Sequence record: SRR20825019_117 | DNA: 20,000 bases | Strand: one strand, 5' to 3' | Shown: piece by piece, positions 434 to 19,263 of the stretch | Numbering within the stretch: the first letter of the stretch is position 1 | Layout of the letters: each line of letters begins with the position of its first letter | Made by a program: the position numbers and the translations under genes | The notes under the pieces: generated by a model | What the model saw: the letters and a program-made list of their open reading frames with translations, nothing else | The model's database searches: none | What the model was told of the DNA's origin: nothing

Positions 434-2245
434 TTACTCCTGATTGTTTCCCGCCCCGGTGGATTGACGTTGCGCGTCCCGCTCCCGTATCAGGTTGCGC
501 ACTTTTTCTGTCACGGCTTCATTGACCCGGCCACTCAGTTGCAGGCTGGTCAGCAACGCTGGAATGTCCTCTTCCAGATTGATATTCAGGACAATGGGAT
601 GACCATCTCGGACTTCGGGGCTGCTGCCTTCCAACCGCAATCCCAGCATAAGGGTACCATCCTGAGCGTAGTCTATCGTGCTGTTGAGAACCGAGTAGTG
701 AAAGTTTTCCATGGCCTGGACCACCAGTGCCATCGCCTGGTTACCCTGGGCCATCCCCTTCAATCGATCGGCTGGCAGTTTCAGCGTGCCGCCAGGGGCC
801 ACCGCCTGGACCTGCCCGGCATCAATGCTCACACCCTCCGGACCAACCCGGACCGGAATGGCGCCCTGAAGCAAACCACTGCCCGCCAACCCCTCGGCGG
901 GGTATACCTGCATCAGTTTCGCCAGCTCAATGCCGCTGAGTTCAAGGGGAATCCGCAGCGGCATGTCGGCAAGTTGCCATTCTCCGGGTGTGACCCGAAC
1001 CTCGCCACCCAGAAGCTCGGAAGAGGCCTGGTCCAGAACCAGGGTACCGTTGGCGATCTGATCCCGGGGTGAGCGATAGAGGCCGGCGACCCGCACATCG
1101 CGCAAGGCGATGCCCGGATTGAGGGCATCCAATACCAGGTCGGAGGTCCGGACATTTACGTGGTCATTGTCCAGGTTCAGATTCACCCTGCCGTCGAGAC
1201 CGGTCCAGGCCGTCCGGTCGTACAATCCATCAAGGTTATCGAAAACAAGATCTCCCTGAACGCGGATGCCCTGGGATGGGAAGCGCGCACTCAGGGCCGT
1301 CTCGACGCGGCCGTCACTCACCTCGAGCGCCGCTGGCCACGCGGTGAACGTATCCGCCAGCGCGCGACCGCCACTTGCTCCGACAGCGTTCATGCTCACC
1401 TCAAGCGCCGGTATCCCTTCGAACGGATAGTTCATGTCCATGTCAGCATCGACGCCGGCGTCCGACGAAAGCCTGCCGTCGATCTTCAATTCGCTGAGGG
1501 TGCCGTCCAGCTGCCCATCGAATCGCCAGGGCTGGGGAAGCAACTGGGGGTGGTGAATGGTGGCGACGGTCGCCTCAAACGGCCCCTCGACCGCAAGACG
1601 CTCCAATTCCATGGGGGTCAACTGATATTCCCCGACCAGAGTCACACCGGCCAGGTTGACCCACAGGCCATCCAACCGGGAATCCTTGCCGGGCGCGGCA
1701 ATATCGTCGAACTCGACGCGGCTTTGTTCGCCGAGGGTCAGTGTTGCAGCCTGCTCGCTGGCTGTACCGCTGACCGTCAGGTTTATCCGGCCTTCCCCCA
1801 TGGTCCAGCCAGCGAGGGCCCGCTCAGCCAAGCGACCTTCGATCTTCATGGCGCGAGTGATGAGTTGCCGTTCACCGGGTTCCAGGGGCCTTGAGATTGT
1901 CAGATCGCCCTCGGCATGGACACCTTGCGGCAGACTCAGTGCCAGTTGTTCGATCACAATGGCCTCGGGCATGGGACCATACCAGTGCCAGCGCCAGGCC
2001 AGCGACAGTTGTTTCCCCACCAGGTGATAGCGCTGCCCTTCCCGGCTCTGGGTCGCAGACAAACGGTCTAGCCGCAGGCCCGCCAGCGAGACGTCACCCC
2101 ATCGCCATTCAACGTTGCTGATGCCATTGGCCTTCCGCCAGGTCTCCCACGCCACAAGGGCGTACAGGCCTCCCGCCATCGACAACATGACAATCAGGCT
2201 CAGAAGCAGTAGCAGGCATCGGCGTAGTGTCATGAAAGCAGTCAT
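434..2245 (-). CDS. ydbH: YdbH family (AsmA-like) intermembrane lipid-transport protein
   Basis: N-terminal TM anchor, beta-rich body, C-terminal ENFHYSVL...LRLEG...PIVLNINLEEDIPALLTSL; ydbH-ynbE-ydbL synteny. Start is ATG 2245 or 2233. Confidence 0.85.
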   Translation of the reverse strand: MTAFMTLRRCLLLLLSLIVMLSMAGGLYALVAWETWRKANGISNVEWRWGDVSLAGLRLDRLSATQSREGQRYHLVGKQLSLAWRWHWYGPMPEAIVIEQLALSLPQGVHAEGDLTISRPLEPGERQLITRAMKIEGRLAERALAGWTMGEGRINLTVSGTASEQAATLTLGEQSRVEFDDIAAPGKDSRLDGLWVNLAGVTLVGEYQLTPMELERLAVEGPFEATVATIHHPQLLPQPWRFDGQLDGTLSELKIDGRLSSDAGVDADMDMNYPFEGIPALEVSMNAVGASGGRALADTFTAWPAALEVSDGRVETALSARFPSQGIRVQGDLVFDNLDGLYDRTAWTGLDGRVNLNLDNDHVNVRTSDLVLDALNPGIALRDVRVAGLYRSPRDQIANGTLVLDQASSELLGGEVRVTPGEWQLADMPLRIPLELSGIELAKLMQVYPAEGLAGSGLLQGAIPVRVGPEGVSIDAGQVQAVAPGGTLKLPADRLKGMAQGNQAMALVVQAMENFHYSVLNSTIDYAQDGTLMLGLRLEGSSPEVRDGHPIVLNINLEEDIPALLTSLQLSGRVNEAVTEKVRNLIRERDAQRQSTGAGNNQE

Positions 2246-2252
2246 CAATGGG

Positions 2253-3821
2253 TCAGTGTCCGCGCCAGTTCACCGTGTACAGATCGTGGCGGCGATCCTT
2301 GAGGTTCTTCACGGTACCGCTGTTGCGGGCGGTAAGCAGTGTTTCCGGCCGTAGATCGGCAAAGGCGACGGTCTCCACATTCGGCGTGGTATCCGCGGCG
2401 ATGCCATCACGGGCGAACGGAAAATCACAGGGTGTCAGGATGCAACTCTGGCCGTACTGCAACTCCATGTTGGGCACTTTGGGCAGGTTGCCGACATTGC
2501 CGGACATGACCACGAACAGCTGGTTTTCCACCGCACGGGCCTGACAACAGTACCGTACCCTCAGATAACTCTGGCGCTCATCGGTACAGAAAGGCACGAA
2601 CAGGATCTGGATGCCCTGGTCCACCAGATGACGCGTCAGCTCGGGAAACTCCGCGTCGTAGCAAACCAGGACCCCAATGGGGCCGCAATCGGTTTCAATG
2701 GCAGTGACACGGCTGCCACCGGTGATATTCCACCAATAGGCTTCGTTCGGCGTGGGGTGAATCTTGGGCTGCGAGAACACTTGCCCGTCTCTCAGGAACA
2801 CGTAGGCAACATTGCGAACCCGGCCGTCCTCTTCCTTGACCGGCGTGGAGCCACCGATAATGTTGATGTTGTGCCTCAGGGCCAGATCGCGCATCAGGTT
2901 GCGGAAGGGTTCGGCGTATTCCGTCACCGCTTCGATGGCTTCCGCCGGGGTCCCTTCACGGCTTTCAATGGACAGCAATTGCAGCGTGAACAACTCCGGG
3001 AACACCACGAAATCACCTTTGTAGGTGGACACCACATCCACAAAGTACCGGACGATGTCGCTGAATTCTTCAAACGATGCCACCCGGCGCTGCTGGTACT
3101 GGACCGTGCCGATCCGAACGGTGTCGGGCATTCGCCGGCCGTATCGCTTGCGCTTGCCGTTGTCGCCGTTGCGGGCCACCTTGGGATTCCTCCAGGTCAG
3201 GTGAATACCGTAACCCAGGGAAGCGTGGTCAGCATCCAGGTAGTGCGGAATAATGCCGTGGATTTCAAAACCGTTGTGTAATTGGAACGACAGTACTGGG
3301 TCCCGCTGCTTTTTCGATTTCACCGCCTCCACGTACTCTTCCACCGATTCAAACTTCTTCAGGCGCTTGGCCAGCGTCGGTAACCTGCCCGCGAACACAA
3401 CGCCCTGCAACTCCAGCGCCTGGCAGAGCGTTTTTCGTTCGTTGTACAGGCGCTCACCAATGCGGTAGCCACGGCAGTCGGGGTCTACACAAACCTCCAT
3501 GCCGTACAGCCACTCCCCTTCCGGGTCGTGGCGCGAGGCATAACCATTACCAGTAATTTCTGTCCAGTCATGGGGCGCCAATGCAACGTCTTCACCAATA
3601 CGAAACGTGGCGCAATACCCCACCACACGGTCACCCAGCATGGCGACAAACTGGCCCTCAGGAAAGGTGTTGATCTGCCCTGTCAGGGGGCCAGCTGTGT
3701 AGCCATACATCCCTGTGCCCGCGTACACTCGGCGGCTCAGGGCGATGATTCCCGGTATATCACCAAGGGTGGCGTTTCTTACGTACAGGCGCTGTGTCTT
3801 GTCTGAAAAGGGAGGACTCAT
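2253..3821 (-). CDS. GNAT acetyltransferase / carbon-nitrogen hydrolase (nitrilase superfamily) fusion protein
   Basis: N-terminal GNAT (EVCVDPDCRGYRIGERLY) and C-terminal CN-hydrolase with Glu-Lys-Cys triad (VFPE, QPKIH, VCYDAEFPE). ATG 3821 has a GAGGT RBS, so it is preferred over the ORF-track start at 3911. Confidence 0.88.
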   Translation of the reverse strand: MSPPFSDKTQRLYVRNATLGDIPGIIALSRRVYAGTGMYGYTAGPLTGQINTFPEGQFVAMLGDRVVGYCATFRIGEDVALAPHDWTEITGNGYASRHDPEGEWLYGMEVCVDPDCRGYRIGERLYNERKTLCQALELQGVVFAGRLPTLAKRLKKFESVEEYVEAVKSKKQRDPVLSFQLHNGFEIHGIIPHYLDADHASLGYGIHLTWRNPKVARNGDNGKRKRYGRRMPDTVRIGTVQYQQRRVASFEEFSDIVRYFVDVVSTYKGDFVVFPELFTLQLLSIESREGTPAEAIEAVTEYAEPFRNLMRDLALRHNINIIGGSTPVKEEDGRVRNVAYVFLRDGQVFSQPKIHPTPNEAYWWNITGGSRVTAIETDCGPIGVLVCYDAEFPELTRHLVDQGIQILFVPFCTDERQSYLRVRYCCQARAVENQLFVVMSGNVGNLPKVPNMELQYGQSCILTPCDFPFARDGIAADTTPNVETVAFADLRPETLLTARNSGTVKNLKDRRHDLYTVNWRGH

Positions 3822-3980
3822 GGAAACCTCGGAAGCTGGAAGCCTAAAGGCATAGTTCGCGAAATGTCCTCGAGCCGTCAAGTGGCCTCTGCAGAAAACA
3901 AATCGAAGCAAACTTTAACCTGACAAACCGGCGCCAGGCCTTTTAGAGTAGGCCCATGTAAAACGATTAGAGGCTTTCCC

Positions 3981-6124: not shown

Positions 6125-7243
6125 ATGGACCCAGCACCCGGAAATCATCTCCAAGCCGTCAAAATAGAACTTAACCGCCTTGAGACCTACCGGCGGCGCA
6201 CCTATCTTGGCGTTCTGGCCTTGACCGTGGCTATCATGATGCTCAGTTGGGCCTTCCGGGAACAGGGCGACCCGTTCATTACCATCGCCTACCCTGTTTT
6301 TTCTGTCATTCTCACCATTCTTGGCTTCGCATTCTGGCGCCGATCCTTGCAGCTCAGAACCATGGAAATCACCCTCGTTGCCGTGGTCGGTACGATGATA
6401 CTCAGCCGCCTCGCATGGCATTTTGCGGTTGGCGACCCGCTCGGCGAACACCTTCTTTTGCTCACGGGCGGGCACTACTGGGCAGTGGGTATCATGATCG
6501 TTGGCGGTTTTATTGCGCTTGGTTTTCGGGGCGGCATGGTGACAGGTGTCGCGACCTTGCTGTTTTCGGGCGCGCTGACCACTCAGGAAGTCTCTCAATG
6601 CTTCCTGGCAGCAGGCGATCACTGTCAAAACTGGGTATACCTGCTGCGCATCCATCTGTTCCTCACCGTTCTGTTGGTGCTTACCAGCGCCGGAACGCTG
6701 CTGCGTGAACGCTCCTGGAGTGCCTTTGCGCGAGCCGAGACCCTGCACCATTGGGCGAACACAGATCCGCTATGCGGCCTGGCAAACCGCCGGGGTGCTG
6801 ACCGTTTCCTGTCTGCCGAAGCCGCCCAGGCAGACCGATACCAGCGCCCTCTGACCATCATTCTGATTGATATTGACGAATTCAAGAGCATCAACGATGA
6901 CTACGGCCACGAAGTTGGTGATGCGGTGATTCGCGAATTTGCCGCTATCCTTTCCAAAACCGTTCGTGAAGTGGACCTCGCCGCTCGCTGGGGCGGAGAC
7001 GAATTCCTCGTCGCCACACCGGGCGTGGACCTTCGCAGCGCCCGCCACGCCGCACAACGCTGCCGCCGCGCCATTGAAAGGGCACCCATCGCGGGTGTCT
7101 CCGTGACTGCCACCGTCGGTATTGCCGAGTACCTGCCTGGACAGGGCATCGAGGATGCCATCAGCCGGGCCGACGCCATGCTATACCGCGCCAAGGCCGC
7201 TGGCCGAAACCGGGTGATTACGGAGGCCTGCGAACTGGCCTGA
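6125..7243 (+). CDS. Membrane-anchored diguanylate cyclase (GGDEF)
   Basis: About 6 N-terminal TM helices; DPLCGLANRR, DIDEFKSINDDYGHEVGD, RxxD I-site (REVD), intact RWGGDEF, ADAMLYRAKAAGRNRV. Confidence 0.93.
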   Translation: MDPAPGNHLQAVKIELNRLETYRRRTYLGVLALTVAIMMLSWAFREQGDPFITIAYPVFSVILTILGFAFWRRSLQLRTMEITLVAVVGTMILSRLAWHFAVGDPLGEHLLLLTGGHYWAVGIMIVGGFIALGFRGGMVTGVATLLFSGALTTQEVSQCFLAAGDHCQNWVYLLRIHLFLTVLLVLTSAGTLLRERSWSAFARAETLHHWANTDPLCGLANRRGADRFLSAEAAQADRYQRPLTIILIDIDEFKSINDDYGHEVGDAVIREFAAILSKTVREVDLAARWGGDEFLVATPGVDLRSARHAAQRCRRAIERAPIAGVSVTATVGIAEYLPGQGIEDAISRADAMLYRAKAAGRNRVITEACELA

Positions 7244-7261: not shown

Positions 7262-7325
7262 TGCCGTTTTTGGACGACTTGGTGTCGTATTGGATTTACC
7301 ATCCTTGACCGATCCGGGCCACATT
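7262..7325 (+). promoter_or_regulatory. Putative activator-dependent promoter (tandem TGnCGT boxes plus -10 CACATT) of the flavoprotein gene
   Basis: TGCCGTTTTTGG (7262-7273)-N9-TGTCGTATTGG (7283-7293)-N26-CACATT (7320-7325); near-identical layout at 16966-16903 on the minus strand. Confidence 0.7.
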
Positions 7326-7374
7326 GAATCAAGGCCGCGCACGCGGCTGCCATTGTGGGTATAGGGGGATCGAG

Positions 7375-9945
7375 ATGGCACAACTACCGAAACGTGCAAA
7401 AGTCGTCATCATTGGCCAGGGCGGTATCGTTGGCTCATCGGTTGCCCACCACCTGATTGAACAGGGATGGGACGACATCGTCGGGCTGGAAAAATCCGCC
7501 ATTCCCTCGGACATTGGCTCTACGTCCCATGCCTCGGACTTCTGCTTCACCACCTCTCACGACAAGCTGAACATTTACACCACCAAATACAGCCAGGCGT
7601 TTTATGAAAAGCGCGGCAACTACGTGAAATGCGGTGGTATGGAAGTGGCTCGTGTCGATGACGACGAGCGCATGGAGGAACTGCGACGCAAGGTGGGCTC
7701 TGGCAAGGCCTTCGGCACCAACGTCAGCATGATTTCACCGAAACAGGCCAAAGAACTGTTTCCCCTGCTGAACGAAGACTGTATCCAGGGTGCCATGTGG
7801 GACCCGGACGCCGGGCTGGTGGTGCCCCGCTCCCAGAGTGTCGCGGGCGATCTGGTCGAAGAGGCGGTCGCTACGGGAAAACTACAGGCCTTTGCCTACA
7901 CACCGGCCATCCGCATCGATGTGCAGGACGGCCAGGTACGGGGCGTTGAAACCCACAAGGGCTATATCGAAACCGAGTACGTGGTGCTGTCCATGGGCAT
8001 CTGGGGGCCGCTGATGGCCAATACCGCCAACTCGCCCCTGCCGCTGATGCCACTGGAGCACCCACTGCTGTTCTTCGGTCCCTATGAGGAACTGGCCGGC
8101 ACCGGCAAGCAGATTGTCTATCCCTTGTTCCGCGACCAGGGTAACTCTGCCTACGTGCGTGATACCGGCGACCCCACAACCACCGAGGGTGGCCGCATTG
8201 AGTGGGGCTATTATGAATCCGAAGACCCACGGCTGGTCTACCCCGGTGCCATTTCCGAGCCCGGCGAGGCACGGATGTCGCCATCCATGCGAGACCTGAC
8301 TCTGGATCAGGTTATGGACGCTTACGAAAAAGCCATCGAAATGACGCCGATTCTCGGCGAACTGGGCTGGGAGGAAAAGCATTCCTTTAATGGCCTGCTG
8401 TCGGTCACGCCCGACGGCGGATCACTGATGGGGGAATCCCCGGAAGTGCGCAACCTGTGGTTCTGTGAGGCGGTCTGGGTCAAGGACGGCCCCGGAGCTG
8501 GCAAAGTCCTGGCGGACTGGATGACCCATGGTTCTCCGGAAATGGACCCCCACAGCATCGACATCGCCCGCCACTATCCGCTGCAGAAAACCCCGGACTA
8601 CGTGTACAACCGCTGCTACGAAACCGCCAAGAAAATCTACACGCCGGCGGTGCATCCCCGCGAGCCCTACATGACCGGTCGCAAGATGCGAACCAGCCCC
8701 TTCTATCTGCGCGAGGTGGAGCTGGGGGCCTACTTCATGGAAGCCGCCGGTTGGGAACGGGCCCACGGCTACGCCGCCAACGAGTCCACTTTGCTGGCGA
8801 AATACCGTGACCGCATTCCGGTCCGGGAACACGAATGGGACGCCCGGCATTTTTGGGAAGTCTCCAACGCCGAGCAACTTGAAATGAGCGAATCGGTGGG
8901 CATGATCAACCTCTCCCACTTCGCTATTTTCGACATCTCCGGTGACGACGCCGAAGCTCTGCTGGAGTATCTGTCCGTCGCCAAGGTGGGCGGCACCATT
9001 CCTCATGGCAAAGGTGTTTATACTCACTTCCTGGATGCCCGTGGCGGCATCCGCTCCGACCTGACCATCATCCGGCAGGGCGACAACGATTACCGGGTGG
9101 TCTGCGGCGGCGACACTGGCCATCGGGACCATTGCTGGATCAAACGCATCGCACGGGAAAAAGGCCTGCACCATATCCGCCTGCAGGACCGCACCGATGA
9201 GCTGGCCACCCTGGGGCTCTGGGGGCCGAAGGCGCGGGAAACCCTGGCTCAGTTCGTCACCAACCCTGACGAACTGTCGGCAGAAAATTTCCCATTCGCC
9301 ACCGCCCGGGAATTGAATGTCCAGGGCGTGCCGGTGTGGGCGTTCCGGATATCCTATGTGGGCGAGCAGGGCTGGGAACTCTACTTCCCGTTCAGCTATG
9401 GCCTGCGAATCTGGGACCTGCTGTACGAAGCTGGCGTTACGCCGGTTGGCATCGAGACCTACGCCAACACCCGCCGCCTGGAAAAGAGCCTGCGGCTGCA
9501 GAACGTCGACCTCGAAACGGAGTACAACCTCTACGAAGCCGGGCTCCAGCGGCCCAAGGTCAAGGAGGCCGACTTCCACGGCAAGGCCGCCTACCTGGAA
9601 CAACGAAGCTGGCCACAGCAGGCCGCGTACCTGTGCACCATGACCATGACGGAACATCGGGACGCCAACGGAGTACTGCGCTACCCGGTTGGCCAGTGGC
9701 CGATCCTCGACCCGCAAACCGGTGAGGTACTGGTGGACAGTCACGGCCGCCGCTCCTACAACACCAGCGTGGTTTGGGGACCGTCGGTGGGCAAGATCAT
9801 CCTGCTGGGGTACATTCCCGTGGAATATGCTCAGGAGGGACGGGAGCTGACCCTGGAATACTTCCAGGAGCACTACCCCATCCGTATCGAAGCTGTCGGC
9901 TACCGGGCGCTGTTTGATCCGGACAACGAACGGGTCAAGTCCTGA
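7375..9945 (+). CDS. Dimethylglycine oxidase/dehydrogenase-like flavoprotein (DAO-type FAD domain + GcvT-like THF-binding domain)
   Basis: 856 aa from ATG 7375 (GGGGGA RBS). IIGQGGIVG Rossmann motif; GSTSHA (covalent-FAD His position in DMGO); PLEH and SAYVR (His/Tyr dyad positions); TPDG; GWER; GGIRSDLT; LWGPKAR; RISYVGEQGWELY; RRLEK. Confidence 0.85.
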   Translation: MAQLPKRAKVVIIGQGGIVGSSVAHHLIEQGWDDIVGLEKSAIPSDIGSTSHASDFCFTTSHDKLNIYTTKYSQAFYEKRGNYVKCGGMEVARVDDDERMEELRRKVGSGKAFGTNVSMISPKQAKELFPLLNEDCIQGAMWDPDAGLVVPRSQSVAGDLVEEAVATGKLQAFAYTPAIRIDVQDGQVRGVETHKGYIETEYVVLSMGIWGPLMANTANSPLPLMPLEHPLLFFGPYEELAGTGKQIVYPLFRDQGNSAYVRDTGDPTTTEGGRIEWGYYESEDPRLVYPGAISEPGEARMSPSMRDLTLDQVMDAYEKAIEMTPILGELGWEEKHSFNGLLSVTPDGGSLMGESPEVRNLWFCEAVWVKDGPGAGKVLADWMTHGSPEMDPHSIDIARHYPLQKTPDYVYNRCYETAKKIYTPAVHPREPYMTGRKMRTSPFYLREVELGAYFMEAAGWERAHGYAANESTLLAKYRDRIPVREHEWDARHFWEVSNAEQLEMSESVGMINLSHFAIFDISGDDAEALLEYLSVAKVGGTIPHGKGVYTHFLDARGGIRSDLTIIRQGDNDYRVVCGGDTGHRDHCWIKRIAREKGLHHIRLQDRTDELATLGLWGPKARETLAQFVTNPDELSAENFPFATARELNVQGVPVWAFRISYVGEQGWELYFPFSYGLRIWDLLYEAGVTPVGIETYANTRRLEKSLRLQNVDLETEYNLYEAGLQRPKVKEADFHGKAAYLEQRSWPQQAAYLCTMTMTEHRDANGVLRYPVGQWPILDPQTGEVLVDSHGRRSYNTSVVWGPSVGKIILLGYIPVEYAQEGRELTLEYFQEHYPIRIEAVGYRALFDPDNERVKS

Positions 9946-9972: not shown

Positions 9973-11355
9973 TCAGCACTCGATGATGTTGACCGCCAGC
10001 CCGCCTCTTGAAGTTTCCTTATACTTATCCAGCATATCGCGGCCGGTTTCACGCATGGTGTGCAACACCTTATCGAGGGAAACGAAATGTTTGCCGTCAC
10101 CGCGCAAGGCCATGATCGCAGCATCGATAGCTTTTACCGATGCCATGGCATTGCGCTCGATACAGGGAATTTGCACCAACCCACCAATGGGGTCGCAGGT
10201 CATCCCCAAGTGGTGTTCCATACCGATTTCGGCCGCGTTCTCAACCTGTTCCGGTGAACCGCCTGTCGCTGCAGCCAGCCCGGCAGCAGCCATCGCACAG
10301 GCCGATCCCACTTCGCCCTGACAGCCCACTTCCGCCCCTGAAATGGACGCGTTTTCCTTGAACAGTACGCCGATCGCCGCGGCTGTCAGCATAAAGCGGA
10401 CAACGCCGTCTTCATCCGCCTGGGGGCAGAACTCCCAGTAGTAATGCAGCACCGCCGGAATAATGCCAGCAGCGCCGTTGGTAGGTGCTGTCACTATCCG
10501 ACCGCCGGCCGCGTTCTCTTCATTCACGGCAAGGGCGTAGAGATTCACCCAGTCGAGCGCACTCAAAGACGGCGATATAAGGTCCACTCGCGTTTTGTCC
10601 ATCAGTGAACGATACAGCGACGCCGCTCTGCGCCGGACCTTGAGGCCTCCGGGCAACTCCCCCTCATGACGGATACCATTTTGCACACACTCACGCATTA
10701 CCCGCCAGAGTTCGAGAATGCCCGTTCGAATCTGTTCTGGCGAGCGCCAGGCCTGCTCGTTGGCCAACATAATGTCGGCGATGGTGAGTTCGTGTTCCTG
10801 GCAAAGAGCCAACAGGGTTTTCCCGCTGTTGAAGGGATAAGGCAAGGGCGTATCGTCTGCGCGGATTTCCAGGCTGCCGTCAGCGTTCGCCGCTACCACA
10901 AAACCACCGCCGACCGAGTAATAGGTGTGCTCACACAGGCACTGCCCATCCTCGTCGAATGCCTGACAGACCATGCCGTTGGGGTGTTCAGGCAGAGATT
11001 TCCGTCGGTAATACACGACATCGGAACTCTCGCGGAAACGAATCGGATGATGACCGGCAAGGCTGAGGGTTCCTGTGCTTCGAATACGCTCAAGCCGACC
11101 CGGCATTTGCTCGGGATCAATCCGGGCCGGCTCTTCCCCTTCCAGCCCCATCATCACAGCAGGGCCGGTGCCGTGGCCCTTGCCCGTAGCCCCCAAAGAG
11201 CCATACAGGGATACCTTCAGCCGACACACGGAGGCCAACAAACGTTCATCAGCAAGGCCACCTGCAAACCGGCGCGCGGCTTCCATGGGCCCGACGGTAT
11301 GGGAACTGGACGGTCCAATGCCTGCCTTGAACAACTCAAACAGACTGACAGCCAC
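9973..11355 (-). CDS. sdaA: L-serine ammonia-lyase, Fe-S dependent
   Basis: [103 protein letters not shown] 11355 with GGAGG RBS. Confidence 0.96.
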
Positions 11356-11386
11356 TTTGCAGCCTCCTACCTCGGGATGTGTTTCA

Positions 11387-11450
11387 AGGATAGCGCCTTC
11401 GGCAATCCACCGCCTGCTTGCTGACGACATTCGAACGATGGTTTACGACA
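11387..11450 (-). promoter_or_regulatory. Putative sdaA promoter with tandem TGTCGT boxes
   Basis: Minus strand: TGTCGT (11450-11445) and TGTCGT (11429-11424) are 21 nt apart; -10-like TATCCT (11392-11387) starts 37 nt after the proximal box. Confidence 0.6.
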
Positions 11451-11553: not shown

Positions 11554-11682
11554 GAGATCACACTGGAACTGATCACTTATTGCACTATCAAAAGGCAACA
11601 ACTAGTGTTCAGGTTGAGGCAATAACTTGCTGTGACAGCCAGACATTGCCGCGACAGGCCCAGGCGGGGCAAGGGGGTTACC

Positions 11683-12795
11683 ATGACCACTGATACAGGC
11701 TCATACACAGACAGGCCCGCCCAAGAGCCCTATCGGGTCGGCTTCCTGCTGATCGATAATTTCACCCTGATTGCCCTCGCCACAGCCGTTGAGCCCCTAC
11801 GCATGGCCAACCAGTTGGCCGGCACTGAACTCTATTCCTGGAAGCTTCTTACGGCTGAAGGCGAACCTGCCCGGGCCAGCGATGGCATTACCATGCTGCC
11901 CGACGCGTCGATCCAGGAAGAGTGCCGGTTTGACCTGGTGATCGTAGTGGCTGGTATTGATGTTACCCGGAGTTTTTCCCGCAAAGAGGTTGTCTGGTTG
12001 AAGCAGATGGCCCGTCGCCACGTCCTCCTTGGGGCGGTCTGCACTGGCCCCTATGTCCTGGCCAGTGCGGGCCTTCTGGACGGTCACGCCTGTAGCGCCC
12101 ATTGGGAATGCCTGGAGGCCATGCAGGAAGGCTTTCCACGGGTACAAACCAACAACCGCCTGTTCACTGTCGAGCGGGAACGTATGACCTGCACCGGTGG
12201 TACCGTCCCCATGCACATGATGCTCAGCTTTCTGGCAAGGCGCCATGGCCAGGAGCTTAGTAATGCAATATCCCACATGTTTGTGTGCGACCGGGTGCGA
12301 GAGGAAAGCGAACAGCAACCGATGCCGATGCACCCCCGCCTGGCCTGCGCCCAACCCAAGCTGGCAGAGGCAGCCCAGTTAATGGAGGCCAATATCGAAG
12401 AGCCCATCGAACTGAAGGAACTGGCAACGCTGGCCGGCATTTCGCGGCGGCAACTGGAGCGGCTGTTCCTCAAGCACACGGGCTGCACGCCTTCACGTTA
12501 TTACCTGCGGGTGCGCCTTAATAGGGCGCGCCGATTGCTCAAGCAGACATCCTGCTCGATCGTGGAAATCGCCTCCATGTGTGGGTTCGTGTCAGCCACC
12601 CACTTCAGCCGGTGCTATCGCAAGACCATGGGGCGTGCCCCCAAACACGAACGAATGGAAATATACTCCCAGGGCTCTTCCAGCACAGTTTTTCCCGATT
12701 CCATGGCCAGCCTGCCGTCTTCCTCCCTGCAGGCATTGAGGCGCGCCCGGTCTGAACCGACCTATGGCATTTTCGAGAACACCGGATCAGGTTAA
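11683..12795 (+). CDS. gbdR: GlxA-subfamily AraC regulator, GbdR-like (glycine betaine/dimethylglycine-responsive)
   Basis: DJ-1-like N-domain [42 protein letters not shown]; Ara[13 protein letters not shown]...SRRQLERLF...PSRYYL...[14 protein letters not shown]. Closely follows Pseudomonas GbdR as recalled. ATG 11683 with GGGGG RBS. Confidence 0.8.
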
Positions 12796-14523
12796 CCCCA
12801 CCACCAAGCCGTTTTCATCCAGCGCAATGTCCATTGCCGCGGGGTGGCGTGGCAAACCGGGCATGGTCATGATGTCACCACACACCGCCACCACAAAGCC
12901 GGCGCCGGCTGCCAGGCGCACTTCCCTTACCGGCAGCATATGGCCGGACGGCGCTCCCTTCACCGACGAATCCGCCGAAAAGCTATACTGGGTCTTGGCG
13001 ATACACACGGGCAGGTGGCCAAATCCAAGACTCTCGTATTCCTCCAGTTGCCGCTTCGCTACTGTCGTGAATTCCACGCTACCTGCGTGATAGATACGCG
13101 TCGCGATGGTGCGGATTTTATCCGCCAGCGGCAGGCTGTCTTCATAGAGAAAGTGTACCTCCGGTGTGCCTTCGTCCATCTGATCAAGCACCGCCTGGGC
13201 CAGTTCGGTGGCACCCTCACCCCCCAAGGCCCAATGGTCGGCAGGCACTGCACGCACACCCAACGACTCACTGATGGACTGCACCAGCGACATTTCCTCC
13301 TCGGTATCGTCCGGGAAACGGTTGATGCACACCACTGGCGTCAGTCCGAACTGCTGAAGATTACGAATATGCCGCTCCAGATTGGCGGCACCCGCCCTCA
13401 AGGCAGCAAGGTCGGGAACGGATAGTTTGCTACGAGGAACCCCACCCTGCATTTTGAGGGCCCGGATGGTACAGACAACCACGGCGGCATCTGGCCGCAG
13501 GCCCGTGTGCCGGCATTTGATATCAATAAACTTTTCCGCCCCCAGATCGGCACCAAAGCCCGCCTCAGTGACCACCACATCGTTCAGCGCCAGGGCGGCA
13601 CGGGTGGCGGTCACGGAATTACAGCCGTGGGCGATATTGGCAAACGGCCCGCCGTGAATGAACACCGGGTTGTGTTCCAGGCTCTGGACCAGATTGGGCT
13701 GCAGCGCCTCCTTCAGAAGCACAGTTAACGATCCTTCCACACCCAGGTCACGAACGGTCACCGGCGTCATATCAGAGCGCCTGCCGATAATAATATTGCC
13801 CAGCCGCTGCTTGAGGTCTGCCCGACCGTCCGCCAGGCACAGGATCGCCATGATCTCGGACGACACGGTAATGTCGAACCCGGTTTCCCGAGGCACGCCA
13901 TGAGCCGCACCGCCAAGCCCACACACCATGTTCCGTAAGGAGCGGTCGGTCAGGTCCATCACCCTCCTCCAGCTCACATAGCGCGGATCCAAACCAGCCT
14001 CATTCCCCCAGTGAATGTGGTTGTCGATCAATGACGCCAGTAAATTATGGGCTGTAGTGATGGCGTGGAAGTCACCATTGAAATGCAGGTTGATGTCTTC
14101 CATCGGAATCACCTGCGCGCGACCACCGCCGGCAGCGCCCCCTTTCATGCCGAAGCAGGGGCCCAGGGAGGGTTCCCGCAGGCACACGGAAGAACGCACG
14201 CCCAGGCGGTTGAAGCCATCGTTCAGTCCCACACTCGTGGTGGTCTTGCCCTCCCCGGCTGGCGTGGGCGTAATGGCGGTCACAAGCACCAGTTTGCCCC
14301 GGGGTGCACTATCAGAGGTATCCACATAGGCCATATCCAGTTTGGCCTTGTAGTGGCCAAATGGCACCAGGCTCTCCCCCGGAAGACCGAAACGCTGTTG
14401 GGCCAGCAGCAGAATAGACTGCGGCTGGACCGAGCGAGCGATCTCAATGTCAGGAGTGCCCGGCGGCGGGAAGTCGGCTTCCGGTGGTGTTGCGGGTGTC
14501 AGCTTACTGTACTGAAGACTCAT
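12787..14523 (-). CDS. fhs: Formate--tetrahydrofolate ligase
   Basis: [103 protein letters not shown] 14523 with GAGG RBS overlaps the metF end by 20 nt. Confidence 0.96.
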
Positions 14524-15448
14524 GGAACTGACCTCTCTGGTCCTCAATGGACCCACTGTGTTCTCGAATCCATTGCGCCGATTGGCGCAGGCCACCGAAT
14601 GGGAAAAGATGAATGCCCCGTAGCAAGGTATCCGGGTTATGCAGGCAGTACTGGACAAGCGCGCGCACCATTCCGTCCGGCGACCAAGCACGCAACAGTT
14701 TGGCGCTGCCAGGACGTCGCAGCATCAGACGGGCCGATGCTCCCACCCCACATTGAGCCGCATAGGCAATGAGCGTTTTCACCCGGGTCGGGCCGGCCAT
14801 GCCAATGTACACCGGCACCTCTTCCAGGATACTGCCAAGGCTTTGCAGCCAGTCGATGACCACGTTGGCGTCAAAGGTGAACTGGGTGACCACCCAGAGC
14901 CGTGTGGACGTCGTGCGCGCGTATTCGCGTTTGATGCCAAGGGCCTGGATGAGGGTTGCCCGGTCCGCCATGGGATGCCCGTCCGGATGGGCTGCCACAC
15001 CGATACCATGGAATTGGAACTGTGCCAGCAGGCCGGACTCCAGAACCGCCAGGGTATCCTGAAAGGGGCCGGCGATCGCATCACTATCGCCAGCAATCAA
15101 CAGCAAGCGATCAACGCCGCTTTCATCCAATTGCGAGAGCCAGTCCCGGAGTTGCCCACGGCTCTCGGCCATACGTGCGGGTACGTGGGGAATCGGCTGC
15201 ATGCCAACGTTCAGCAGATGACGGCACGCCCGCAGGGTATCGCTGAACTCGCCTTTTGGCAGGAAAGGCACATAGACGCAGGTACCTCGCGGCAGCAAAT
15301 CCGGCAAGTGCTCCTGTGCCAGTATCTGGCGGGGTGTTGCCTCAATGGACGCCCAACGCACCAGAGCCTGCATCCTTGCGATGGCGTCCTCGTCGCGGGC
15401 ACTGAACGGCTGTGTATCACTCACCAGTTTCATGAATCGCGCACCCAT
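14504..15448 (-). CDS. metF: Methylenetetrahydrofolate reductase (MetF-like)
   Basis: [58 protein letters not shown]; lies between the methyltransferase gene and fhs. Start at 15448 or 15433. Confidence 0.82.
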
Positions 15449-15506: not shown

Positions 15507-16868
15507 TTAGTCCGCGAAGTCGATACCCTTCGCCCGTGCCCGTTCGCGGGCGTTGGGGTTCACAGAGGGCCGGAAGGGCACTTCCACCACTTCCGCCTCG
15601 ACATCCGTCGAACCATCCGCAGCGGCATATTCCACCGGCAGATGTACTGTCAGGCGGGTACCAACGGCGCGCATGTCAAACGGCACATAGGCCAGTGCGA
15701 TGTTGGTTTCCAGCTCGGGCGAGTACCAGGGAGAGGTAACGTAGCCCTCAGGCTCGCCGCCGTCTGCTCCGCTGACCAACCAGAAGTCATTGGCATAGTC
15801 GGTTACCTGGCCGCCACCAAACCGGACACCCACCATGATGTGGCTGAACGGCGGTCTGCCAGCGTCAAGTTGCTCGCGGACTTTCTCGAGCTTCTGCTTA
15901 CCGATGTAATCCGCGTCTTTGTTGCGAGGCACCTGATACGCCAGGTTGCACTGGAATGGCAGGGTTTCCTGGTCCACGTCCTGGCCCCAGGAAAGGATAC
16001 CGGCAGCTATTCGGCGGTGATGCGCCGGCGCAATCACCCTCAGGTTGTGGGCCTCACCAGCGGCAAGCACCGTGTACCAGAGGTCTTCGGCGTATTTGGT
16101 GGCTTCCTTGAGGTAAATCTCGTAGCCCTTCTCACCGGTAAAACCGGTCTGGGAGACAATCACGTCATGGCCGGCCACCTGCCCCTCCATCAAGCCATAG
16201 TACGGAATATCCTTCACTCGCTCACCGAACAGGTCAGCCATGAGCGCCTCAGATTTGGGCCCCTGGATTTGCACCGGAGCCACATCGATTTCCGCGATGG
16301 TGACGTTGAAGCCCATCCCGATGTTGACGCCTCGCAGCCAGAATTCCAGGTCGCTATCGGAAAGGGAGAACCAGAATTCGTCCTCGGCAACACGAAGCAG
16401 AACCGGGTCATTGAGAATACCGCCGTCCTCGTTGCAGAGGATGACGTACTTGCCACGCATGGGCTTTATCCTGGTGGCATCTCGAGTGATCACGTAGTTC
16501 ACGAAACGTTCCGCGTCCGGGCCCTTGACCTGAATCTGGCGTTCAACGGCGACATTCCACATGGTGACGTCATGAATCAGCGACTCATATTCCACCATGG
16601 CGCCGCCATCTTCGGGACGGACGTAGCCCCGGGGGTGATACATACGGTTGTAAACGGTCGCTCGCCAGCAACCGGCTTCGTACGCCAGGTGCCAGTACGG
16701 CGACTTGCGTACACGGGTTGAGATCAACATCTCCACCGGCGTGGGGCCGGACTGGCGTAAATTGATGGGAACCCGACGATCAGACTGGTCAACACTGTCA
16801 GGCTGGCGGGCCGCACCCGCTCGTTGTTGCGGATAATCCAGAAGTGCTTGCTCAAATTTAACGGCCAT
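15507..16868 (-). CDS. GcvT-superfamily THF-dependent methyltransferase, DmdA-like; substrate unknown
   Basis: RVRKSPY, TVYNRM, WNVAVERQIQVKGPDA, ILNDPVLL, FWFSLSDSD, IQGPKS, TGFTGEKGYEIY, RIAAGILSWGQD, TSPWYSP. The N-terminal half tracks DmdA motifs (YNHM, WDVAxERQ, NDPV, WxSxADSD). GGGGGAG RBS. Confidence 0.82.
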   Translation of the reverse strand: MAVKFEQALLDYPQQRAGAARQPDSVDQSDRRVPINLRQSGPTPVEMLISTRVRKSPYWHLAYEAGCWRATVYNRMYHPRGYVRPEDGGAMVEYESLIHDVTMWNVAVERQIQVKGPDAERFVNYVITRDATRIKPMRGKYVILCNEDGGILNDPVLLRVAEDEFWFSLSDSDLEFWLRGVNIGMGFNVTIAEIDVAPVQIQGPKSEALMADLFGERVKDIPYYGLMEGQVAGHDVIVSQTGFTGEKGYEIYLKEATKYAEDLWYTVLAAGEAHNLRVIAPAHHRRIAAGILSWGQDVDQETLPFQCNLAYQVPRNKDADYIGKQKLEKVREQLDAGRPPFSHIMVGVRFGGGQVTDYANDFWLVSGADGGEPEGYVTSPWYSPELETNIALAYVPFDMRAVGTRLTVHLPVEYAAADGSTDVEAEVVEVPFRPSVNPNARERARAKGIDFAD

Positions 16869-16902
16869 TGCTATCTCCCCCTACCGGGTTGTCGATAGCT
16901 CT

Positions 16903-16966
16903 AATGTGACCCTGTTTTCAGTTATCAGGTTGAACCAATACGACATTGGCACAACCAAAAACGTCA
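16903..16966 (-). promoter_or_regulatory. Putative activator-dependent promoter of the methyltransferase-metF-fhs operon
   Basis: Minus strand: TGACGTTTTTGG (16966-16955)-N9-TGTCGTATTGG (16945-16935)-N26-CACATT (16908-16903), matching 7262-7325. Confidence 0.72.
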
Positions 16967-17096
16967 ACACCGAGATGATGGATCCCGGAAGCCCTCCCAA
17001 AGCGCCAAGCATGAGGTGAGTAGACAGCAACCACCACCTGCTCCGTAAAGCCTGTTATATTGGTGGGGACCGTCCGTGCAGATCAAGGAGTCGACG

Positions 17097-17498
17097 TTGA
17101 CACTGACCACCCCTGCCCTTTTGTTTCCCGCCATTTCATTGTTGCTGCTGGCGTACACCAATCGCTTTCTCGTACTTGCTCAATTGATCCGTCAACTCAA
17201 ACAGATGGATACAGAAGAAGACCATGCCCTTATTGCCCGCCAGATCAGCATGCTGCGCAAACGCATTTTGCTGACCAAACGGATGCAGGCTTACGGTGTG
17301 CTCAGTTTTTTTGTCTGCACCATGTCCATGTTTGTTCTGTTTGTGGGAGCTCAGCTTGCTGGAGCAATCGCGTTCGGCATCAGTCTCGTGCTGCTGTCGG
17401 TCTCATTGTTGTATTCACTGTACGAAATCGTGATTTCCACCAACGCCATCAACGTTGAGCTTGAAAATTTCGAGGCCCGGAAACGAGCCGGGGAGTAA
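17097..17498 (+). CDS. DUF2721 family membrane protein
   Basis: LTLTTPALLFPAISLLLLAYTNRFL...LIRQL...QISMLRKRI...EIVISTNAI pattern. TTG 17097 follows AAGGAG; alternative start GTG 17076. Confidence 0.82.
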   Translation: MTLTTPALLFPAISLLLLAYTNRFLVLAQLIRQLKQMDTEEDHALIARQISMLRKRILLTKRMQAYGVLSFFVCTMSMFVLFVGAQLAGAIAFGISLVLLSVSLLYSLYEIVISTNAINVELENFEARKRAGE

Positions 17499-17585
17499 TA
17501 CACAAACGCTCAGGAAACCGAGCCAGGCGGATACAAAACCGGAGAAGGGGCAGCACAACTTTCGGAAAATATCTTGCACGGCACA

Positions 17586-18014
17586 TCATTTGTTTCTCGG
17601 GCTGACAACGGCCAATGTCACCGTTGCCTTGGAGACAAGTCGCATGTCACCAGCCTCGCCACAATAAACCTCAGACTCTACCACGGTTAACGTAGAGCCT
17701 GCCTTGAGCACAGTGGCGACACACTCGATATGTGTCCCACTGGCAGCCCTCAGCAACTTCAGCGAGAAGTCCGATGTCAGGACTATCTGCCCGGATTTAA
17801 CAGCGGAGGCACCGGCAGCACCCGCCGTGTGATCCGCCACCGTAGCCTGCACCCCGAAATGCACGAAACCATCCTGCTGCAGGTGCCGTTCCGCCAGTAC
17901 CAGGCGCGAACGGCATTCACCGGTTTTGATAGACACCAGTTCCAGACCAATATCCGCAACAAACGGTGCCGATGAAAATATCCGTTCCACTTCTTTATTG
18001 TTAAGCGTGTCCAC
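17586..18014 (-). CDS. PaaI family hotdog-fold thioesterase
   Basis: HLQQDGFVHFGVQATVADHTAGAA, LKLLRAA, VLKAGSTLTVVESEV; GTG 18014 with GGAG RBS. Confidence 0.85.
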   Translation of the reverse strand: MDTLNNKEVERIFSSAPFVADIGLELVSIKTGECRSRLVLAERHLQQDGFVHFGVQATVADHTAGAAGASAVKSGQIVLTSDFSLKLLRAASGTHIECVATVLKAGSTLTVVESEVYCGEAGDMRLVSKATVTLAVVSPRNK

Positions 18015-18119
18015 ATTGTCTCCGGAGCTGTTGTTGGTCAAGTGCGTCGGTATCTTTGAATCTTGGTTCGGTTTCGTAGTGGAACATTCGCCCCACCTCA
18101 CATCGTGTTAGCGGCAAAG

Positions 18120-18680
18120 TCACTCGGAATTTCCGGCGAGGGCAAACCGTTCAATGATCTGATAGACAGACCCATGATCCCCCTGTGTGCTTTCAAACAA
18201 CGCAATCCCGCCGACCGAAAATGCCCCTAACGGTTGTCGTTTCCGAGACTCCAGCAATTCGGCAACTGAGCCACGCTGTCTATTGAAACGCGACAACGTG
18301 ATATGTGGGCGGAACGGGCGTTTTTCCTGCTCAAACCCTGGCATGCAGAGCCTCTGGCAAAGCACCTCGTGAAGCTCTGCCAGTTTATCCGCTGGCTGAA
18401 CTCCGGCCCACAGATTTTTTGGAAAGTCCGGTCGGCCGAAGCAGCCCAGGCCACAAACCGTTAGATCAAATCGTTCAACTGGCAGGTTTCGGGCGGCATC
18501 ACATACATCCGGCAACCGCTGTCTGGCCACACTACCGAGAAATACCAGCGTAAGATGCAGCTGATCCGGTCGCTGCCAGCGCGCCCCTGCAACCGGTTGC
18601 TGAATTGACACCAGACGCTGTTTTACAGAATCGGGGATTTCCAACCCGAAGAACAGGCGATGTGTTTCTGGTTTATCCAA
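18120..18680 (-). CDS. thpR: RNA 2',3'-cyclic phosphodiesterase (2H phosphoesterase)
   Basis: RLFFGL, two HxT motifs (HLTLVFLG, FRPHITLSR), LFES. Start uncertain (TTG 18680 or 18692). Confidence 0.9.
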   Translation of the reverse strand: MDKPETHRLFFGLEIPDSVKQRLVSIQQPVAGARWQRPDQLHLTLVFLGSVARQRLPDVCDAARNLPVERFDLTVCGLGCFGRPDFPKNLWAGVQPADKLAELHEVLCQRLCMPGFEQEKRPFRPHITLSRFNRQRGSVAELLESRKRQPLGAFSVGGIALFESTQGDHGSVYQIIERFALAGNSE

Positions 18681-19263
18681 CCCGCACCCCAAACCATTCT
18701 GGAAACCGGCGCAGACAGTACAGCGCTATCATGTCGTAAACACCATGCCAGACCATCACCAACAACAAACTGTCCGTCAGTGCATAAGCTGCCCCCAACA
18801 CCACTCCAAGCCCCGTCGCCAATAGAAAGTAGGTGAACGAAAGATAATGCACCATGCCAAACAGCACCGACGCAGCCGCTATCGCAACCGCATCGTGGGT
18901 GTGTTGGGCCAGCCAACCCTGGACCGCCCCACGGAACAGCAATTCTTCACCGACTCCGGCGAAGACTGCCAAGGCTACCAGCACCGGCCAGGAATACCCG
19001 CAAGCGAAACGGTGCAACTGCTCCAACTGGGAGTCCAGAGAATTGCGGAGCCGGCCCGGCAGCCAGGTCAACATCATGATCACAACGTAGGTTGCCACAC
19101 TGCCGGCCACTCCCCATAGAACGACCGAGCCAAAGCTCAAACCATCGTACTGAACCGGTATACCGAACAAAAAAATCGCCAGCAGCCCCACCACACCAAT
19201 ACCGGCCTGAAATCCCAATGCGAACGTGGATGAAATCTGCGGGCGTTTGCGAGCCATCGCCAC
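18673..19263 (-). CDS. CPBP (Abi/CAAX) family intramembrane glutamic endopeptidase
   Basis: GEELLFRG, LFGMVH and WHGVYD motifs in a multi-TM protein. Start 19263 (GTG) or 19257 (ATG). Confidence 0.9.
   Translation of the reverse strand: MAMARKRPQISSTFALGFQAGIGVVGLLAIFLFGIPVQYDGLSFGSVVLWGVAGSVATYVVIMMLTWLPGRLRNSLDSQLEQLHRFACGYSWPVLVALAVFAGVGEELLFRGAVQGWLAQHTHDAVAIAAASVLFGMVHYLSFTYFLLATGLGVVLGAAYALTDSLLLVMVWHGVYDMIALYCLRRFPEWFGVRVG

Follow-up and report, generated by a model that had tools for sequence, protein, structure and literature searches.

The window studied here, by which we mean the whole stretch of 20,000 nucleotides (nt) from sequence record SRR20825019_117, carries on its minus strand, at 15507..16868, the gene for a methyltransferase of the GcvT/DmdA fold. 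This gene, which we call the target, is the first of a three-gene operon: the target, a MetF-like gene (14504..15448, minus strand) and the gene for the formate-tetrahydrofolate (THF) ligase Fhs (12787..14526, minus strand). We characterised it through its open reading frame (ORF), its translation, Pfam searches, an AlphaFold2 (AF2) model and a phylogenetic tree, and we lean towards reading it as a THF-dependent enzyme of glycine betaine catabolism. A first-pass annotation, made from the sequence alone, had described a DmdA-like ORF here, and the translation does contain all six motifs that it quoted (TVYNRM, WNVAVERQ, NDPVLL, WFSLSDSD, APAHHRRIA and TGFTGEKG). Their DmdA counterparts had been given correctly, as the alignment with Pelagibacter DmdA (PDB 3tfh) shows TIYNHM, WDVAAERQ, NDPVVL, WWISIADSD, CPNLIERIE and SGWSKQGG.

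The ORF starts with an ATG at 16868 and runs for 453 codons, as first described, against the 369 amino acids (aa) of Pelagibacter DmdA. It had also been credited with an N-terminal extension (DQSDRRVPINLRQSGPTP) and a C-terminal tail (RPSVNPNARERARAKGIDFAD), and both are present in the translation. A Shine-Dalgarno site, GGGGGAG, can be read from the sequence at 16875..16881 (minus strand), 6 nt 5' of the ATG. When 12 homologues representing several orders are aligned, there is hardly any variation over residues 33-61 (VPxNLRQSG...LISTRVRKSPYWH); residues about 27-47 and the tail motif VPFRPSVNPN are invariant, and at position 47 three sequences have leucine in place of methionine. All 80 fetched loci contain VPxNLRQSG, and 66 of the 80 contain RPSVNP. 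These counts are not circular, because the loci were retrieved with the peptides VRKSPYWH and WNVAVERQ, both extension motifs lying outside the search pattern. An internal start at Met47, which would make the N-terminal extension an artefact, is ruled out by the Shine-Dalgarno site before Met1, the invariance of the upstream residues and the three homologues with Leu47; taken with the motif conservation, this shows that both terminal extensions are real and not artefacts of ORF calling. In the AF2 model, residues 21-50 form an ordered coil, with a predicted local distance difference test score (pLDDT) of 82-91, and the last 24 residues score 65-82.

A clade apart from DmdA and GcvT

Two Pfam domains are recognised in the target, GCV_T (E-value 5.9e-40, 137.6 bits, cut-off 25.6) and GCV_T_C (1.7e-08, 34.7 bits, cut-off 25.9). 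With both scores above the gathering values and with its three-domain GcvT fold, the protein belongs to the GcvT-fold THF-binding superfamily. The AF2 model, built on 59 sequences, has a mean pLDDT of 93.2 and a predicted template modelling (TM) score of 0.91. Compared by Foldseek with known structures, it matches Pelagibacter DmdA best (TM 0.94 on the target, root mean square deviation 1.9); next come T-proteins and the folate domains found in dimethylglycine (DMG) dehydrogenase (DMGDH), DMG oxidase and sarcosine oxidase. The TM scores against 3tfh, 1woo and 1yx2 lie between 0.88 and 0.94. At the sequence level, HMMER aligns residues 50-331 with DmdA 3tfh (E 6e-47), and the residues aligned to DmdA E204 and Y206 (chain numbering) are retained as GYEIY. 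LigM is remote from the target, both by sequence (E 2e-4) and by Foldseek (TM about 0.62). The curated models nevertheless exclude it from both of the families it resembles: the top NCBIfam match, DmdA NF009133, gives 267.5 bits, under the cut-off of 410 (250-269 bits for family members at other loci), and the GcvT models TIGR00528 (140.2 bits, cut-off 235.85) and NF001567 (158.2 bits, cut-off 300) are both missed.

The separate clade proposed in the first-pass annotation is recovered in a maximum likelihood tree of 62 rows, four of them long-branched outgroups, obtained with the IQ-TREE quick search and supported by Shimodaira-Hasegawa-like approximate likelihood ratio test (SH-aLRT) values only. 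The 14 family members, with the fragment-like cluster P0130 among them, form one clade (SH-aLRT 99) inside a 24-row clade of non-DmdA sequences (98), and the five DmdA rows group together (98) in another 24-row clade (97). When 50%-identity representatives were searched exhaustively without a profile, the nearest other full-length clusters, P0123 and P0124, proved 54% identical to the target, and the sequences over the NCBI DmdA cut-off (P0155, P0214, P0237, P0265 and P0271) 32-39% identical. The NLRQSG motif and a GGAM/GGLM insertion are common to the sister clusters P0123, P0124 and P0143 and absent from DmdA.

The active-site motifs of DmdA are remodelled in the family. At 28 positions, 13 or all 14 of the family rows agree on a residue that is not that of the DmdA majority. 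Among the motifs, WDVA has become WNVA and CPNxIERIE has become PAHHRRIAAG. Three residues retained in most DmdA, DmdA-like and outgroup rows (exceptions being, for example, P0143 and P0271), namely the Arg of SRTG/SRSG, the Glu of R(I/L)E(A/G)G and the Glu of P(F/Y)E, are Gln240, Ala288 and Gln306 in the target family; the replacements R240Q, E288A, E306Q and D105N are invariant in the 14 family rows compared. The Trp of DmdA SGWSKQGG is Phe243 in the TGFTGEKG of the target. A Trp of DmdA, W171, has been reported as a DMSP (dimethylsulfoniopropionate)-specific contact (PMC7487153), and mapping by alignment offset suggests that it is this very residue. Below both curated cut-offs, in a clade of its own and with Phe at the DMSP-specific Trp, the target is neither DmdA nor GcvT.

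The family is large and very uniform. A word-indexed search returned, as its best 120 matches, proteins of 363-478 aa with 75-95% identity to the target, whose source names are only 'aminomethyl transferase family protein' or 'glycine cleavage T C-terminal barrel domain-containing protein'. A scan of species genomes confirmed 597 of 600 candidate stretches, so that the family is present at no fewer than these, including a Pelagibacteraceae metagenome-assembled genome (MAG) and alphaproteobacterial single-amplified genomes (SAGs), Marinobacter, relatives of Halomonas, Vibrionaceae and Actinomycetota. The best 80 of these loci, which we used for the context counts, are 69-98% identical to the target and come from five phyla: Gammaproteobacteria (42), Alphaproteobacteria (28, among them the Pelagibacteraceae MAG with numerous SAGs related to it), Actinomycetota (6), and a single locus each from Latescibacterota, Spirochaetota, Gemmatimonadota and unclassified Pseudomonadota. 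They are not independent samples, as 13 are from Marinobacter and about 20 are near-identical SAGs. The target is much more conserved than the neighbouring proteins: in SAG L059, identity with the window falls from 70% for the target to 32% for the DAO-GCV_T enzyme (the DMG-oxidase-like flavoenzyme described below) and 29% for the MetF-like protein, and in locus L017 it falls from 79% for the target to 66% for Fhs, 42% for the GbdR-like regulator and 41% for the MetF-like protein.

The operon and its regulatory neighbourhood

The second gene of the operon lies 58 nt 3' of the target stop on the same strand, and its ORF codes for 314 aa, the true start being likely a few codons in, at MKLV. It has no Pfam match and only a weak NCBIfam methylenetetrahydrofolate reductase (MTHFR) match (E 4.7e-8). 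Its residues 28-299 match the MTHFR of Sphingobium SYK-6 (S6MTHFR, PDB 7xg9) at E 1.1e-47, against about 1e-4 for ordinary MTHFRs. The S6MTHFR residues L48/P49, C219 of helix alpha8 and P268/F269 are retained in the window protein and in nine orthologues from other loci; two positions depart, with Tyr standing for Phe215 and Met, not Arg, at the counterpart of chain position 78. According to Yu et al. 2025 (PMC11868366), this 'type 4' MTHFR converts methyl-THF to methylene-THF, co-occurs with THF-dependent demethylases and barely reacts with NADH on account of Leu48-Pro49 and Pro268-Phe269. We therefore predict that the MetF-like protein oxidises 5-methyl-THF to 5,10-methylene-THF. The third gene, fhs, is assigned by Pfam FTHFS (2.2e-251) and NCBIfam NF010030 (842.5 bits, cut-off 652), and its ATG at 14526 overlaps the 3' end of the MetF-like gene.

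Convergent to fhs is a gene for a GbdR-type AraC/DJ-1 regulator of choline and glycine betaine catabolism (11632..12795, plus strand; NF052371, 507.9 bits, cut-off 480), followed along the window by an SdaA-type L-serine ammonia-lyase (9973..11430, minus strand; TIGR00720, 686.3 bits, cut-off 345.1) and by a divergent 873-aa flavoenzyme with the Pfam domains DAO, FAO_M and GCV_T (7324..9945, plus strand). The latter resembles DMG oxidase or dehydrogenase, and its best PDB match is the dimethylglycine oxidase of Arthrobacter, 1pj5 (E 1.2e-108). A GbdR above its cut-off, an SdaA and a DMG-oxidase-like gene together mark this part of the window as a glycine betaine locus predicted to be under GbdR control. 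The first-pass annotation was correct in reporting no gcvH, gcvP or dmdBCD nearby, none being found among the 19 window ORFs scanned with Pfam and NCBIfam. The lack of informative context that it implied is to be rejected, as it had overlooked the MetF-like, Fhs, GbdR, SdaA and DMG-oxidase-like genes. The operon, the regulator and the DMG neighbours are the main evidence on function, and much stronger evidence than these absences.

The two transcription units share a promoter element. A 28-nt operator-like site, GTTTTTGG-N9-TGTCGTATTGG, lies at 16935..16962 (minus strand), about 67 nt 5' of the target start, and a second copy at 7266..7293 (plus strand), just 5' of the DMG-oxidase-like gene. 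With up to 3 mismatches allowed, the window holds no match besides these two, and none was found in 200 shuffles. Exact copies occur at the same place 5' of the target in seven Marinobacter loci (L001, L006, L007, L008, L009, L010 and L011) and 5' of the DMG-oxidase-like gene in six (L001, L008, L009, L010, L011 and L012); overall, the site is kept at these places in 8 of 13 Marinobacter loci. It is a putative shared operator, for which GbdR is the obvious candidate binder.

RNA-library contigs of relatives (85-99% alike) cover the target, the MetF-like gene and fhs, and the junction of the first two is bridged in libraries X15, X17 and X19, from three studies. This attests presence in the libraries and bridging of the junction, and it supports transcription weakly, since contigs cannot prove a single transcript, its strand, its level or its induction.

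Gene context and distribution of the family

We compared the window proteins with the best 80 loci by tblastn (at least 50% query coverage, E at most 1e-10), several of these loci being short contigs. The MetF-like protein is matched in 56 loci, the DAO-GCV_T enzyme in 53 (one of which, L049, is probably the target itself), Fhs in 31 and the GbdR-like regulator in 28; homologues of SoxB occur in 28, of SoxA in 28 and of DgcA/DgcB in 2. Gene orders were read from selected loci scanned for domains. SAG L059 has soxB-soxD-soxA-soxG, DAO-GCV_T (DMGDH), MetF-like and target, the same order being found in the Pelagibacteraceae MAG L051, and a Geminicoccaceae MAG has soxBDA, GbdR-like, target, MetF-like, Fhs and DAO-GCV_T. 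Photobacterium satsumensis (L023) has soxB, soxA/G, target, MetF-like, Fhs, an M19 peptidase, DUF5943, DgcA and DgcB; Grimontia (L042) has target, MetF-like and Fhs and, further on, DgcA and DgcB; and Spiribacter has soxG, GbdR, Fhs, FixC-like, DAO-GCV_T, EtfAB and target. In Marinobacter sp. DUT-3 the target, MetF-like and Fhs genes are followed by FdhD, formate dehydrogenase alpha, NuoF-like and GbdR genes; formate dehydrogenase genes are part of the locus in Marinobacter L006.

The nearest genome, G001, carries the window locus at 97% identity. In an even sample of genomes of the window's order, the target is present (E at most 1e-100) in 7 of 301 genomes, 5 of them among the 10 genomes of the window's genus, Marinobacter. 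We surveyed 41 genomes of this genus, 33 of them with at least 90% completeness and at most 5% contamination. The target is found in 20 and the DMG-oxidase-like gene in the identical 20; in 19 of them the MetF-like gene is directly beside the target, and in the twentieth, G021, from whose sequence bases are missing, a MetF-like gene is found only as a 34% match elsewhere. A MetF-like paralogue (36%) is also found in G328, a genome lacking the target.

We also looked in the genus for known first steps of glycine betaine degradation. GbcA exceeds its cut-off in 5 of the 41 genomes (G304, G328, G329, G334 and G335), exactly the five that have SoxB, the two genes lying a few kb apart; 17 of the 20 target-bearing genomes are without GbcA, and no MTTB/MtgB-family protein exceeds the cut-off in any of the 41. 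The genus thus holds two separable modules, a Pseudomonas-type GbcA/Sox module in five genomes and the window module in 20, with three genomes having both, and the former looks to be distributed independently of the latter. In G001, three Rieske matches amount to BenA (763 bits to benzoate dioxygenase, 120 to the GbcA model) and two small frames, so that among the Rieske oxygenase candidates BenA alone is as large as a GbcA; MTTB is not matched, and S-methyltransferase is matched just once, in a 1235-aa frame, the size of MetH. Outside the genus we checked five genomes, Photobacterium satsumensis, Geminicoccaceae, Grimontia, Parasalinivibrio and Halomonas salinarum. None of them gave an MTTB match, and GbcA was not found in the first two; all five have small S-methyltransferase-family frames (Pfam PF02574) of 303-432 aa, among which BHMT is not separable from MmuM-type enzymes. 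Most of the target-bearing genomes examined, in the genus and outside it, thus show no alternative first step for glycine betaine through GbcA or MTTB.

In four of five Marinobacter genomes checked (G001, G305, G319 and G313), the only genes over the Pfam GCV_T cut-off are the target and the DMG-oxidase-like enzyme, and with only these two GCV_T-family genes the four appear to be without a canonical glycine cleavage T protein. G115 has a second GcvT-family gene, a 386-aa frame, beside a second MetF-like gene 35% identical to that of the window (contig C1, 293020-295015); the two may make up a further pair of demethylase and type 4 MTHFR, one that acts on another substrate. The DMG-oxidase-like orthologue of G001 (C1:3706946-3709563) matches in two pieces separated by an in-frame TAA, and may be either broken or affected by a sequencing error; matches with one stop also occur in G305, G115, G312, G325 and G324.

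Proposed role in glycine betaine catabolism

The relation to DmdA, a neighbour predicted to oxidise methyl-THF and the setting of N-methylglycine catabolism together point to demethylation of a betaine by THF. On balance, and judging the substrate and the product from context, we favour a function as THF-dependent glycine betaine methyltransferase, yielding dimethylglycine and 5-methyl-THF. A betaine substrate had been put forward in the first-pass annotation, whose observation is confirmed here and whose interpretation is supported, and considerably strengthened, by GbdR, the DMG-oxidase-like gene, soxBDAG or dgcAB at other loci and the adjacent MTHFR. Under this proposal the target would take the first methyl group of the abundant osmolyte glycine betaine (N,N,N-trimethylglycine) onto THF, with no need of O2, cobalamin or homocysteine. 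The product would be 5-methyl-THF, as the partner MTHFR is of a type that oxidises methyl-THF, and this partner would return it to 5,10-methylene-THF. Part of the methylene-THF would combine with glycine to form serine (assuming a GlyA step encoded elsewhere), which SdaA would convert to pyruvate; the rest would pass to 10-formyl-THF (assuming a FolD step encoded elsewhere) and, through Fhs, to formate and ATP, and in some loci on to CO2. Dimethylglycine would be processed further by the divergent DMG-oxidase-like enzyme, and the GbdR-type regulator would probably switch on both transcription units through the 28-nt site.

We see an even chance that the family represents a fourth enzyme type for the first step of glycine betaine degradation, a stand-alone glycine betaine:THF methyltransferase whose methyl group is fed through a dedicated MTHFR into energy-yielding one-carbon oxidation. 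Only three routes of glycine betaine demethylation, the Rieske monooxygenase, Bhmt/Bmt and a cobalamin system, are named in two papers of 2025, in PNAS and AEM, and in a preprint of 2024 (PMC12093977 and PMC12478193 among them), and the PNAS paper states that the first demethylation mechanism 'remained elusive' in marine bacteria. With the enzymes of these routes (GbcAB/BmoAB, Bhmt/Bmt and MtgBCD) the target would share the outcome, glycine betaine to dimethylglycine, and with the Pseudomonas-type pathway it shares the downstream genes and GbdR regulation (PMC12093977, PMC12478193). Its fold and cofactor needs are unrelated to theirs, with no O2/NADH, homocysteine or corrinoid protein, and unlike them it would conserve the methyl group as methyl-THF. 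Full-text literature searches, with subscription journals and supplementary files outside their scope, gave no functional report of a THF- or folate-dependent glycine betaine methyltransferase, and a search on Marinobacter dmdA gave none either.

Two better-known systems come close. DmdA, whose own chemistry moves a methyl group from an onium compound to THF (PMC5395565), shares with the target the three-domain GcvT fold, the motifs NDPV(L/V)L, (S/A)DSD and GYE(I/V)Y and, presumably, a redox-neutral reaction in which an onium compound gives up a methyl group to N5 of THF. The target differs from it by the N-terminal extension of about 45 aa, the GGAM insertion, the C-terminal tail of about 20 aa and a context of betaine genes, with the dmdBCD that go with DmdA not nearby. 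The second system is that of LigM, DesA or Dmt and S6MTHFR in SYK-6 (PMC11868366), where a GcvT-fold THF-dependent demethylase stands beside a methyl-THF-oxidising MTHFR and an enzyme processing formyl-THF, and where a canonical T protein is lacking (PMC12585457), as it appears to be in four of the five Marinobacter genomes. The terms betaine, DmdA, GcvT and Pelagibacter are absent from the main text of PMC11868366, the supplementary list of 68 S6MTHFR homologues being outside the scope of that search. In the window, too, the adjacent MTHFR is of the S6MTHFR type and carries its motif residues, as in a module of the LigM/S6MTHFR kind; the difference lies in the proposed substrate, an N-methyl onium osmolyte as against the aryl methyl ether of the LigM kind. 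The place taken by Fhs in the window is held by LigH/PurU in SYK-6.

A member of the family may already have been noticed in SAR11. The gene SAR11_1265, dmdA-related and near single copy in SAR11, was described as an aminomethyltransferase of unknown substrate adjoining the metF gene SAR11_1264, and Sun et al. 2011 (PMC3160333) speculated that it demethylates methylmercaptopropionate (MMPA), that is, removes the second methyl group of DMSP, and not one of glycine betaine; the mRNA abundances of the two genes change together (PMC5069961, a 2016 proteome paper). The Pelagibacteraceae MAG L051 and the related SAGs hold a member 70-71% identical to the target directly after a MetF-like gene, and by gene order and published description SAR11_1265 is probably the SAR11 member of the family. 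Within the searchable full text it is mentioned only in PMC3160333 and PMC5069961, with no functional report.

We read the target as a THF-dependent demethylase of the GcvT fold that is partnered by a type 4 MTHFR, and its predicted function would add a new route to a major marine pathway. Should this be true, the family would account for much of the oxidation that the methyl groups of glycine betaine undergo in the sea, by a route independent of O2, B12 and the homocysteine cycle; it would give a function to the Pelagibacteraceae MAG and SAG gene, probably SAR11_1265, unexplained since 2011; and it would correct a likely mis-annotation as GcvT or dmdA in metagenome surveys. The type 4 MTHFR/demethylase module would then extend from lignin degraders to marine osmolyte turnover. 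One might speculate that the invariant extensions are new structural elements, serving for example to close the active site on a smaller N-onium substrate or to dock the MTHFR.

Several observations weigh against this proposal. The sulfonium of DMSP donates a methyl group more readily than a quaternary ammonium does. Strict mutual exclusion between the target and GbcA is not borne out, the two overlapping in 3 of the 20 target-bearing genomes of the genus and in 3 of the 5 other genomes, those of Grimontia (where the GbcA copy has an in-frame TAG), Parasalinivibrio and Halomonas salinarum. SoxB was not found in 17 of the 20 target-bearing genomes of the genus, and a monomeric sarcosine oxidase and a second DAO-GCV_T enzyme are absent from all five genomes checked; a single methyltransferase and a single flavoenzyme leave one of glycine betaine's three demethylations unaccounted for. 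Either the DMG-oxidase-like enzyme also takes sarcosine, or the target removes more than one methyl group, or a further enzyme fills the gap. At the loci of other taxa, Yaniella (L046) has dimethylamine monooxygenase-like genes and an IclR regulator as neighbours, and of the 13 loci without known neighbours, 12 show nothing linked to betaine, only unrelated housekeeping or other genes, the remaining one (L047) having a DAO-GCV_T gene. In the pseudomonadal MAG L028, an MttB-superfamily gene (17059-18765) adjoins the GbdR-target-MetF-like-Fhs-DMGDH cluster; it scores 309 bits with the trimethylamine methyltransferase model, below the cut-off of 525, and is matched in L033 at 89%, by tblastn only. 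This gene could itself be a betaine methyltransferase. Finally, a Bhmt is present in SAR11 as well (Sun et al. 2011, PMC3160333).

Some of these difficulties would be eased if the same methyl-to-THF chemistry were directed at another N-methyl substrate, be it dimethylglycine, sarcosine or a different compound, for example proline betaine, carnitine, gamma-butyrobetaine, choline or trimethylamine. A target removing a later methyl group, or more than one, would fill the missing sarcosine step of the 17 Marinobacter genomes, and differing substrates would more easily explain the co-occurrence with GbcA in some genomes. Neighbours do vary by taxon, in Yaniella as just described, in the spirochaete L078, with a TauD/gamma-butyrobetaine hydroxylase-like gene nearby, and in Litchfieldella L034, with a creatinase/M24-like gene (matched by tblastn in L036 too), and these contexts do not fit glycine betaine. 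We still regard another substrate as unlikely: the recurring context is GbdR with DMG and sarcosine enzymes, not genes for proline betaine or carnitine, and the extreme uniformity of the family across phyla (70-98% identity) argues for one substrate everywhere. Moreover, tertiary and secondary amines are far poorer methyl donors than onium compounds.

The two remaining explanations give up either the methyl transfer or the nitrogen. The target could work like a T protein, capturing the iminium or formaldehyde that DgcAB, DMGDH or Sox enzymes set free and turning it into 5,10-methylene-THF, and would then be no methyltransferase at all. Its TGFTGEKG is GcvT/DMGDH-like at the position of SGWSKQGG, in Photobacterium and Grimontia it adjoins DgcAB, an enzyme lacking a folate domain, and no canonical GcvT is seen in four of the five Marinobacter genomes checked. 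We consider this quite improbable nonetheless, as with methylene-THF for a product the near-obligate neighbour, a methyl-THF-oxidising MTHFR, would be without a substrate; in addition, the closest relatives in structure and sequence are DmdA-like methyltransferases, and the DMG enzyme of the window has a GCV_T domain of its own. That the best NCBIfam and PDB matches of the target are to DmdA, and that Sun et al. suggested MMPA for a DmdA-related SAR11 gene beside metF, could rather speak for a divergent sulfonium demethylase, acting on DMSP or dimethylsulfonioacetate as a functional DmdA, or on MMPA. This seems to us very improbable, given the 267.5 bits against a cut-off of 410, the position outside the DmdA clade, the loss of the DMSP-specific Trp (PMC7487153) to Phe and of R240, E288 and E306 to Q, A and Q, and a context of N-methylglycine catabolism with no dmdBCD nearby. 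Glycine betaine as the methyl donor thus remains the reading we prefer.

The rest of the window holds genes of other kinds. A 552-aa ORF at 2253-3911 (minus strand), unrelated to the target, has a carbon-nitrogen hydrolase domain and, weakly matched, a GNAT acetyltransferase region. A YdbH-like protein is encoded at 434-2248 (minus strand) and matches only the C-terminal half of the Pfam model, and a GGDEF diguanylate cyclase at 6125-7243 (plus strand) has a membrane N-terminus with a weak EamA-like match.

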